Shown: positions 38,158 through 39,189 of the stretch, piece by piece
Layout: each line of letters starts with the position of its first letter
How positions within the stretch are numbered: position 1 is the stretch's first letter
NCBI GenBank assembly: GCA_030390025.1
Contig: CM059431.1
Coordinates: 99,264,001 to 99,328,000 of the forward strand
Source: Squalus acanthias
Lineage: Eukaryota
Direction of reading: 5' to 3'
DNA: 64,000 nt
Made by a program: the position numbers and the translations under genes
The notes under the pieces: model-generated
What the model was told of the DNA's origin: nothing
The model's database searches: none
What the model saw: the letters and a program-made list of their open reading frames with translations, nothing else

Positions 38158-39189
38158 CTATCGCTGCTGCGCTGGGACTGGGATCTCCCTGAGCTGCCTT
38201 AGCCTTGATCCTACGCCTTGGGACACTCTGGGGACTTGACCATATCTTCCTGGGCTGGGGTATCCGACTTGACCTACGGGGGCTACCGGGGGCAGGAACT
38301 CCAGGACCGACGGACCGGGTTCCGAGACTTCCACCGTGGCGACCTGTGGTCCCACCACAGTCGCTGGCTCCGCCTCCCCTAACTCCGCCTCCCTGAACTC
38401 GGGATCTGCAGCTTGTGGCACCGCCCTACTTGGCCCAGTAGGCGGCCCTTCACTCGCAGTCCCTACTTCCCTCGAGGGCAAGACGTTCAAGGCGGGCGGC
38501 TCGGGCTCTGAGGCGTCCATCGCCACGCCCTGTGGTCCCACCACAGCGGCTGGCTCCGCCTCCCCTAGCTCCTCCCCCCTGCGTTCGGGACCTGCAGCTT
38601 CGGCCTCCACCCTGTGTGGATCTCTATCTGCAGCCCCTGTCTCCCCTATACCTGAATCGGGGGCGACCCTTTCGTCCTCCGATTCCAGCTCCTCCTCGCT
38701 TGTGTCACTATCTTCGTCGAGCTCCTCGAACTCTTCCTCATCTGTCTCCCAACCCCAATAAAATATCTCACATTTTTCCAGGATGTCCTCTCCCCTGATG
38801 CAAGCTGCTTTGCCTGCCTGTGTGCCCTGTGGCCCTACCTGGGGCTGCGAGTCCCCACTCGCAGGTTTGGCCCCTGTGGTTGGCCCTTGTGCACCTGGCT
38901 TATACAGTTTGCACTGATTTAAATCCCTGCTTCTGGCTACCCCGTGGGCTGCCTTTATATCTCTGAGCTGTGCTTCTAGCATGAGCACGTCTAACTTTCC
39001 CATTAAGCGGGCGTTCTCCTCCCGCAGGGCCTGCTCTCTAAGCTGCCCTTCTAGCACTTCTATTTTTCCCATTAAGCGGGCGTTCTCCTCCCGCAAGGCC
39101 TGCTCTTTTGACCTGGCCTCCTCACAGGAGACCCCCTCCTGTGCGTGTCTTTTAAAAGGACACAGGTAGGCAGGCTGCGTGGGCTCTAG
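38158..39189 (-). CDS. ORFX: 343-aa unknown coiled-coil/acidic/Pro-rich protein in frame with gag after UGA-CUAG
   Basis: No stop from 39189 to TAG at 38158-38160; internal duplications (EQALREENARLMGK x2, ELGEAEPA.VVGPQ x2); acidic tract. Confidence 0.7.
   Translation of the reverse strand, partial: LEPTQPAYLCPFKRHAQEGVSCEEARSKEQALREENARLMGKIEVLEGQLREQALREENARLMGKLDVLMLEAQLRDIKAAHGVARSRDLNQCKLYKPGAQGPTTGAKPASGDSQPQVGPQGTQAGKAACIRGEDILEKCEIFYWGWETDEEEFEELDEDSDTSEEELESEDERVAPDSGIGETGAADRDPHRVEAEAAGPERRGEELGEAEPAAVVGPQGVAMDASEPEPPALNVLPSREVGTASEGPPTGPSRAVPQAADPEFREAELGEAEPATVVGPQVATVEVSEPGPSVLEFLPPVAPVGQVGYPSPGRYGQVPRVSQGVGSRLRQLREIPVPAQQR

Follow-up and report, generated by a model that had tools for sequence, protein, structure and literature searches.

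The 64,000-nucleotide stretch analysed here (the window; Squalus acanthias, GenBank assembly GCA_030390025.1, contig CM059431.1, positions 99,264,001 to 99,328,000 of the forward strand) harbors on its minus strand an open reading frame (ORF) of 343 codons, denoted ORFX (38158..39189). ORFX is almost certainly a remnant of the retroviral gene pol, left behind by an internal deletion. The explanation favored here, with a probability of about 0.6, is that ORFX represents the pol leftover of a non-autonomous, env-bearing lineage of endogenous retroviruses (ERVs) and is likely produced as a fusion with Gag, termed Gag-deltaPol. An initial annotation of the window had proposed an unrecognised accessory gene instead; the match to a pol fragment, which it had set beforehand as one of its refuting outcomes, was found.

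ORFX is part of a minus-strand provirus of about 9.5 kb with the order 5' long terminal repeat (LTR), gag, ORFX, a short spacer, env and 3' LTR; all proviral features given in the following are located on the minus strand. It matches the Pol protein of autonomous relatives of this element at its two ends only: residues 1-13 correspond to Pol residues 1-13 (LEPTQPAYLCP vs LKPAQPVYLCP), and residues 90-238 align with Pol residues 1217-1370 (62% identity, E 9e-50). Collinearity of the nucleotide sequence with the autonomous loci covers the LTR, gag and the initial 32 nt of pol. It resumes at the last strand of the integrase SH3 domain and extends over the tail of Pol as well as the spacer and env. 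It is interrupted only across a filler (provirus positions 3535-3772), which replaces approximately 3.6 kb coding for protease, reverse transcriptase (RT), RNase H and integrase. Because of the two-end match to Pol and the restriction of the break in collinearity to the filler, ORFX is read as an in-frame internal deletion of pol with inserted filler sequence. Three segments can thus be delimited. The retained Pro-Pol start comprises 32 nt (39158..39189) and ends where collinearity is lost, at provirus position 3534. The filler of 238 nt (38920..39157; residues 14-89) encodes a coiled-coil-like helix and contains a 69-nt duplication. The third segment (38284..38919) is the homologue of the C-terminal Pol tail behind the integrase SH3 domain and includes a KPGAQG...TQAGKAAC segment, an acidic tract, the sequence DSGIGET and a 186-nt duplication. 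A divergent copy of the element (L030) retains KWFHVNQCK at the 3' joint, which is like the end of the integrase SH3 domain.

Database searches with ORFX point in the same direction. A profile scan (HMMER) of 1.84 billion protein representatives yielded a single match, P0002 (E 5e-20), which aligns with ORFX residues 62-187 and whose N-terminus looks like the end of an integrase SH3 domain. A word-indexed search, confined to classes of near length in a collection of 5.8 billion protein clusters, gave no match at E 1e-3, and a Protein Atlas search with residues 1-150 reached a best score of 0.82, which corresponds to chance level. No enzyme domain was detected by Pfam in ORFX, only coiled-coil noise below the cut-offs (Rab11-FIP3 and Nup54, E 0.011). 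Since protease, RT, RNase H and integrase domains are missing from ORFX and are all present in autonomous Pol, the frame is regarded as a remnant and not as a polymerase. Nor were protease, RT or integrase detected by Pfam anywhere between the LTRs, including three frames of 37408-38157 and the interval 34985-35429 (with X at stops). The filler itself gave nothing below E 0.4 in tblastn and blastn comparisons with 14 autonomous loci (four plus ten shorter ones) and with the rest of the window, and a DNA search of the shark's own genome recovered copies of the same family only (40 of 1448 candidates scored).

The open frame and the features listed for it in the initial annotation are all present, on the minus strand; a plus-strand reading of 38158-39189 was ruled out by many stops. 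The duplicated EQALREENARLMGK block occurs twice (38984-39037 and 39053-39106) with a period of 69 nt, i.e. 23 codons, and the two units are 93% identical (BLAST E 1e-15). The acidic tract WGWETDEEEFEELDEDSDTSEEELESEDE was confirmed, and DSGIGET is encoded at 38658..38638. The second duplication is a repeat with a period of 186 nt, i.e. 62 codons (38287-38427 and 38473-38613; 76-82% identical, E 3e-17). It is specific for the pol-less family, being found neither in six autonomous rows nor in P0002. The window copy carries a private single-base frameshift at about 38282-38283, near codon 303, which distinguishes it from 9/9 and 12/12 aligned copies. Consequently, the last 40 residues of its ORFX (38158..38283) are out of the family frame, which is 367-372 aa long. 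The normal tail of the family (RRSSRIPQPRKIW...) is encoded here in another frame, at 38081..38282 within the open frame 38081..38425, and ends in a basic stretch like that of autonomous Pol.

The pol-less element is abundant in its host genome. When the best 118 of 11008 first-look candidates from a search with ORFX, a selection biased to intact copies, were scored, at least 118 near-full-length matches with 77-93% protein identity were obtained; 97 of these have no internal stop, and the open frame around most of them measures 367-372 aa. As only the best of the 11008 candidates were considered, 118 is a lower bound on the copy number. When up to three mismatches are allowed, a 36-mer of the filler is found 67 times. 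The 12 further full-length copies all share the collinear, pol-less layout of the provirus in the window, so that pol is missing from the family as a whole. Three filler-bearing copies at G000:C3485:7081-21887 show a spacing of 7.38-7.39 kb, as expected of tandem proviruses sharing LTRs, and another three (G000:C1:115478809-115517623) are spaced by 19.39 kb, which suggests a segmental repeat. A literature search in one library, confined to three themes (shark ERVs with readthrough, deleted ERVs with Gag-Pol fusions and lokiretroviruses), yielded no account of this family.

Autonomous relatives reside in the same genome. With P0002 as query, 144 candidates were scored and 147 rows listed, which correspond to about 140 loci. 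Of these rows, 25 fall into open frames of 1420-1496 aa, so that possible helpers with an uninterrupted pol exist beside the defective family. All four autonomous loci examined (L043-L046) show gag, one stop codon and then an in-frame Pro-Pol of 1437 aa. In one of these Pol frames (P0003), Pfam recognises a protease (22-111), RVT_1 (245-407), tether and RNase H (470-792), the zinc and core domains of integrase (874-1046) and an SH3 domain (1181-1223), followed by 214 domain-free residues; a DTGA protease motif lies about 35 codons past the gag stop. The closest solved relatives by sequence are the RTs of Ty3, murine leukaemia virus (MLV)/xenotropic MLV-related virus (XMRV) and foamy viruses, and the foamy-virus integrase. 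Gag of the window element is 74-79% identical to that of the four autonomous relatives (59-76% over two pieces in one of them), and Env shows 91-92% protein identity to two of them and 82-92% over two pieces to a third.

The position of ORFX relative to gag suggests how it could be expressed. The frame starts directly after the gag stop and shares the gag frame, which runs from 39190 to 40695 from stop to stop. The first ATG of ORFX in the window lies at 39072; a methionine ahead of Met63 is found in only three of 27 distinct copies. Met63 is conserved in all 27 and is the first methionine in 24, from which it follows that codons 1-62 have no start of their own. The proposal of a separate accessory gene is at odds with this continuity with gag and with the position of the first methionine. 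The stop codon and its context, TGA-CTA-G (39186..39192), constitute a candidate leaky stop that joins gag and ORFX in one frame. Among 32 rows, TGA|CTAG was observed in 27, TGA|CTGG in three and TGA|CCAG in one, and in one row the stop is lost; counted by the 29 distinct loci behind these rows, TGA|CTAG is found in 24. The autonomous relatives show CAA TGA CTA AAG in four of four cases. In a review from 2026, UGACUA appears as a type II readthrough hexanucleotide (alphaviruses, a triatovirus), and UGA is said to be used at the gag-pro junction by some fish and frog retroviruses (PMC13517186). By eye, no pyrimidine tract followed by AG was seen before ORFX or before codons 63-90. Given the shared frame, the lack of an ATG before codon 63 in 24 of 27 copies and the lack of a visible upstream acceptor, readthrough of the stop on genomic RNA would be the simplest route, and the product is most likely a minor Gag-deltaPol fusion formed by readthrough of the UGA-CUA stop. 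Whether such a product is made and matters is judged to be an even bet. In contigs from four public sequencing runs, their type being uncertain, the summed depth across 37800-38020 is several-fold higher on the env side than on the ORFX/gag side; this drop is at most a lead to the env splice acceptor, and the measure cannot rank genes and was not used as evidence.

Selection was assessed by pairwise ratios of nonsynonymous to synonymous substitution rates (dN/dS, Nei-Gojobori) among 13 full-length copies, with off-frame controls. In this set, gag gave 0.35 in frame (off-frame 1.0 and 0.9) and env 0.10 (off-frame 1.6 and 2.0), making env the most constrained gene of the element. ORFX codons 1-300 gave 0.58 (off-frame 0.72 and 1.18). 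Regional values were determined with open-frame copies only (21 of the 28 left after removal of repeats, with one further identical pair merged) and a codon bootstrap. For codons 1-143, dN/dS was 0.30 (confidence interval (CI) 0.18-0.48), and no bootstrap replicate reached 1. Within this part, the helix (codons 14-92) gave 0.375 (CI 0.18-0.76) and codons 93-143 gave 0.22 (CI 0.09-0.44); codons 63-143 showed 0.27 in frame vs 1.8 and 1.4 off-frame. The acidic tract (codons 144-182) gave 0.70 (CI 0.35-1.48). Off-frame values below 1 also occur in some sub-regions; they are inconsistent between the pol-less and the autonomous families and were treated as noise. Unique indels are in phase in six of six cases in ORFX codons 1-300, compared with three of 24 in the 3' untranslated region and five of 28 in 37410-38157, a stretch that includes the N-terminus of env. 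Out-of-phase indels pile up just past the family's pol-tail stop (38079-37925). The two LTRs within a copy are 98.4-99.9% identical in seven other copies, whereas divergence between copies amounts to about 6-7%; most of it therefore dates from before integration, when the lineage was replicating and selection can act. Taken at sequence level, the first part of ORFX looks conserved as a protein. The earlier suggestion that the repeats keep frame under selection holds in so far as codons 1-143 are constrained, and fails for the second duplication, which lies in the neutral part.

Structure prediction with AlphaFold2 on a natural copy of 369 aa (alignment of 25 rows) yielded one helix, residues 22-88, with a predicted local distance difference test score (pLDDT) of 77-92; elsewhere the pLDDT was below 50. 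The coiled coil and disorder proposed initially are thus represented in the model by one long helix and a remainder predicted as disordered. The sequence of the helix can be read as L-x3-N-x2-L-x3-I-x2-L, a spacing that is zipper-like, as in GCN4. Its 23-residue repeat unit is not a multiple of seven. In the tail, the KPGAQG...TQAGKAAC segment does not vary between the pol-less family, autonomous Pol and the distant P0002 (alignment A1). The Pol tail of about 215 residues (P0003 1224-1437), predicted to be disordered, keeps a few short motifs unchanged in the same three, namely KPGAQG..TG, TQ.GK.AC.R, a Trp before the acidic run, PQPRK.W and ATGCG.SK. Among 32 rows, the DSG site reads DSGIGET in 19 and DSGIGGT in eight, and DSG is missing in five; the six autonomous Pol rows have DPSIGEV or DPSIGEI (four), DPSTGEV (one) and DSSIGEV (one, L033). 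The canonical motif for recognition by beta-TrCP is DSGxxS. The degron-like reading of DSGIGET is not tenable, as the site has no Ser at position 6, is not present in all rows and falls into the part of ORFX with a dN/dS of 1.15.

The following scenario would account for these observations. One ancestral rearrangement would have removed approximately 3.6 kb of pol, i.e. protease, RT, RNase H and the integrase as far as its SH3 domain. What was left, joined in a single frame, would be the initial 11-13 codons of Pro-Pol, some 65-75 filler codons and a disordered tail of about 280 codons. The two tandem duplications (23 and 62 codons) would have arisen later and preserved this frame. Gag-deltaPol would be formed from genomic RNA by stop readthrough, in the same way as the autonomous relatives presumably make Gag-Pro-Pol. 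Since RT and integrase cannot be made from the element, it must borrow these enzymes, and autonomous relatives are the putative source. Residues 1-143, which unite the N-terminus of Pol, the zipper-like helix and the conserved post-SH3 segment, would be carried into particles by Gag and probably aid the propagation of the element itself. A farther-reaching version, in which a 'satellite' retrovirus with env but no pol uses Gag-deltaPol as an evolved factor of parasitism, seems rather unlikely. In that case, the targets recruited by the helix and the post-SH3 segment would be Gag-Pro-Pol or the integrase of the helper, or else a host factor normally bound to the Pol tail. Reverse transcription and integration of the defective genome would then be preferential, which would account for its at least 118 copies with gag, env and ORFX under selection.

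Several results weigh against a functional Gag-deltaPol. The regional dN/dS set was limited to open-frame copies (21 of 28), drawn from a source list biased to intact ones. Codons 183-372 evolve neutrally (dN/dS 1.15, CI 0.83-1.63), the regional values past the acidic tract being about 1.0-1.3. Codons 1-62 taken alone are indecisive, because one off-frame control (0.29) is as low as the true frame (0.375). Some of the in-phase indels lie in the acidic tract, which resembles a triplet repeat and where slippage by 3 nt needs no selection. Openness was rejected as evidence for the C-terminal half, which would be open by chance with a probability of 0.11-0.82 per pair; this half, DSG motif included, shows no constraint at the amino-acid level in these comparisons. 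Among seven autonomous copies, the SH3 region has a dN/dS of 0.09 and the tail 0.60-1.29, and in view of this weak constraint on the tail of autonomous Pol, part of ORFX may be a functionless passenger. RNA folding behind the stop gave z scores of -1.77 in the window and -0.08 in one autonomous copy, neither of which is significant. In contigs of four public runs, whose type is uncertain and which are unsuited to showing splicing, no usable splice joints were seen. The main alternative is an inert relic, in which a chance in-frame deletion has remained open because the copies are young and GC-rich, with no product of consequence. Such an origin would agree with the neutral C-terminal half, with the weak constraint on the tail in the autonomous virus, with the short time for decay implied by the nearly identical LTR pairs, and with the truncations or frameshifts in the C-terminal part of ORFX in six of 28 distinct copies (the window's included). 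It is nevertheless considered unlikely, as it leaves unexplained the dN/dS of 0.30 for codons 1-143 with no bootstrap replicate at 1, the off-frame controls of 1.4-1.8 for codons 63-143, and the in-phase state of all six unique indels in codons 1-300 and of both duplications, set against 8/52 in the flanks counted as non-coding. Moreover, the whole frame stayed open with a probability of 0.008-0.47 per pair when the observed differences were placed at random, whereas 21 of 28 copies actually have it open, at 360-390 aa.

A free-standing accessory protein, started at Met63 or produced by splicing and acting on host factors via short motifs of the beta-TrCP type, is improbable. The retention of Met63 in every distinct copy and the strong constraint on codons 63-143, the best-constrained part, would suit it, as would the mostly disordered (according to the model) and acidic nature of the protein, which recalls many viral adaptors; the invariant KPGAQG...TQAGKAAC could also be the sign of an exon in common or of a short linear motif. 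The same segment is, however, homologous to and in frame with the tail of autonomous Pol. Met63 has a T at -3, the only plausible acceptor-like sequence seen by eye is located downstream of ORFX and none before codons 63-90, and the DSG motif is non-canonical, variable and situated in neutral sequence; the public-run contigs, ill-suited as they are to the question, add no spliced joints. Highly improbable is the transduction of a host coiled-coil piece as the filler (residues 14-89), which would make ORFX a Gag-host fusion as in acutely transforming defective retroviruses. Defective retroviruses that have replaced pol with captured sequence are of a known kind, the filler is constrained (0.375), and it has no counterpart in gag, pol, env and the sampled LTR parts of four autonomous relatives or elsewhere in the window. 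Against a host origin, the only protein retrieved from the 1.84 billion representatives is a Pol-tail protein, the 5.8 billion clusters (near lengths) contain no match at E 1e-3, the Atlas score and the Pfam coiled-coil hits are at the level of chance and noise, and the scored filler matches in the genome are confined to copies of the family.

The remaining parts of the provirus were characterised as follows. The 5' LTR (40909..42691, approximately 1783 bp with BLAST-defined boundaries) and the 3' LTR (33202..34984) are 99.3% identical over 1784 columns in a self-BLAST of the window. The true start of the element is probably a few bases inside the BLAST boundary, at TGTAG; at the BLAST-defined LTR borders, neither a target-site duplication nor a tRNA primer-binding site was recognised. 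The LTR divergence of about 0.7% can be translated into a rough insertion age: with the slow shark rate of 2.2e-10 per site per year assumed by Han (2015; PMC4422223), approximately 15 million years would result, and at a mammal-like rate approximately 1.5 million, both figures being rough. Each LTR contains a 40-nt motif in tandem (33908-33991 and 41614-41697; 44-nt period, 80% identical), perhaps a repeat of the enhancer type. The window copy is damaged, and relative to other copies it shows single-base frameshifts in the N-terminal part of gag, near codon 303 of ORFX and in the N-terminal part of env.

Accordingly, gag (39190..40996) is present in two frame pieces (40996..40598 and 40695..39190) and ends with the TGA at 39192-39190. 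It is a single ORF of 601 aa in another copy, and open gag frames of 588-640 aa are found in nine of 13 copies. Gag carries a CCHC zinc knuckle (Pfam zf-CCHC, E 0.0013), and its N-terminal third resembles a coiled coil. The gag ORF of the family starts about 85 nt inside the BLAST-defined 5' LTR repeat, so that its first ~28 codons are also found at the end of the 3' LTR. Env (35430..37891) is likewise split in the window (37891..37520 and 37577..35430) and forms a single ORF of 820 aa in another copy (L028:5005-7467). Its start is signal-like, and an RQRR sequence resembling a cleavage site, at about residue 360, is followed by a membrane-anchored part of about 460 aa. Pfam assigned Env to no family, except for a weak Ig_3 match (E 0.17-0.21), and a PDB sequence search gave no match; its public protein relatives are only an uncharacterised skate protein and a sawshark model named cadherin-related. 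The T-rich spacer between the pol tail and env (37892..38080), in which the out-of-phase indels of the 13 copies cluster, contains a possible env splice acceptor near 37955, downstream of ORFX. Outside the provirus, frame fragments read by eye as LINE-type endonuclease/RT adjoin the 3' LTR (29762-33108, plus strand). A 554-aa frame preceded by a 131-aa frame (43164-45094, minus strand) resembles, by eye, a DDE transposase of the pogo/Tigger type, and a tandem repeat with units read as LLFLCNRLKGLNG occupies 45300-46212 (minus strand).

The initial proposal, an accessory gene with a degron, is not upheld, and the remaining interest of ORFX is modest. It concerns a lineage lacking enzymes in which gag (0.35) and env (0.10) are constrained, which suggests helper-dependent infectious spread in a cartilaginous fish and not simple intracellular copying. 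Furthermore, the disordered tail behind the integrase is marked as a distinct module by its invariant motifs; integration targeting is one example of a role it might possibly have.

A high-copy family of defective ERVs is of a known kind; the unusual feature would be the constrained N-terminal part behind a gag stop of the leaky type. Deleted forms of HERV-H/RTVL-H are high-copy deleted ERVs that spread by complementation in trans. ETn/MusD likewise combines a defective form at high copy number (at least 118 in the shark family) with coding-competent suppliers of enzymes (PMC6466679). The deleted forms of HERV-H and ETn/MusD lack env and most coding capacity, whereas gag and env are open and constrained in the shark family, which would argue for helper-dependent spread in particles rather than for a bare RNA passenger. 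With HIV-1 Vpu and other adaptors of the DSGxxS type, ORFX shares a D-S-G in a short acidic region; unlike Vpu, it has no Ser at position 6, no start of its own and no separate membrane-anchor helix in the model.

The junction of gag and ORFX resembles readthrough of the gamma- and epsilon-type, where the downstream frame is also that of gag and a single stop follows the zinc knuckle of the nucleocapsid (PMC13517186). MLV differs in using UAG-GGA together with a pseudoknot, in contrast to the UGA-CUA found here, a type II context of alphaviruses and a triatovirus. For fish and frog retroviruses with UGA, the consulted sections of the review give UGAAGA, UGACGA and UGAAGU, and not UGACUA (PMC13517186). 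RNA folding gave no significant downstream structure here, and the downstream product in the window family is no longer an enzyme.

The closest parallel is offered by the 1-delta-1 form of the mouse intracisternal A-particle (IAP). This is also an internally deleted, non-autonomous ERV that outnumbers or out-competes the full-length form, and its deletion likewise creates a new fusion frame derived from Gag and Pol (PMC6466679). In the IAP, gag is fused directly to pol with the loss of part of gag, whereas in the shark element gag is whole and separated by a stop of the leaky type; filler sequence has been added here, and the Gag-deltaPol fusion is a putative one. IAPs are mostly env-less and intracellular, in contrast to the shark family with an env dN/dS of 0.10. 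The Gag-Pol fusion protein of IAP 1-delta-1 is reported to promote retrotransposition of that element in cis (PMC6466679). The conserved UGA-CUA and the constrained codons 1-143 of the shark element may provide a natural case for the question raised by that element, namely which role a Gag-Pol fusion can have after loss of the enzymes.

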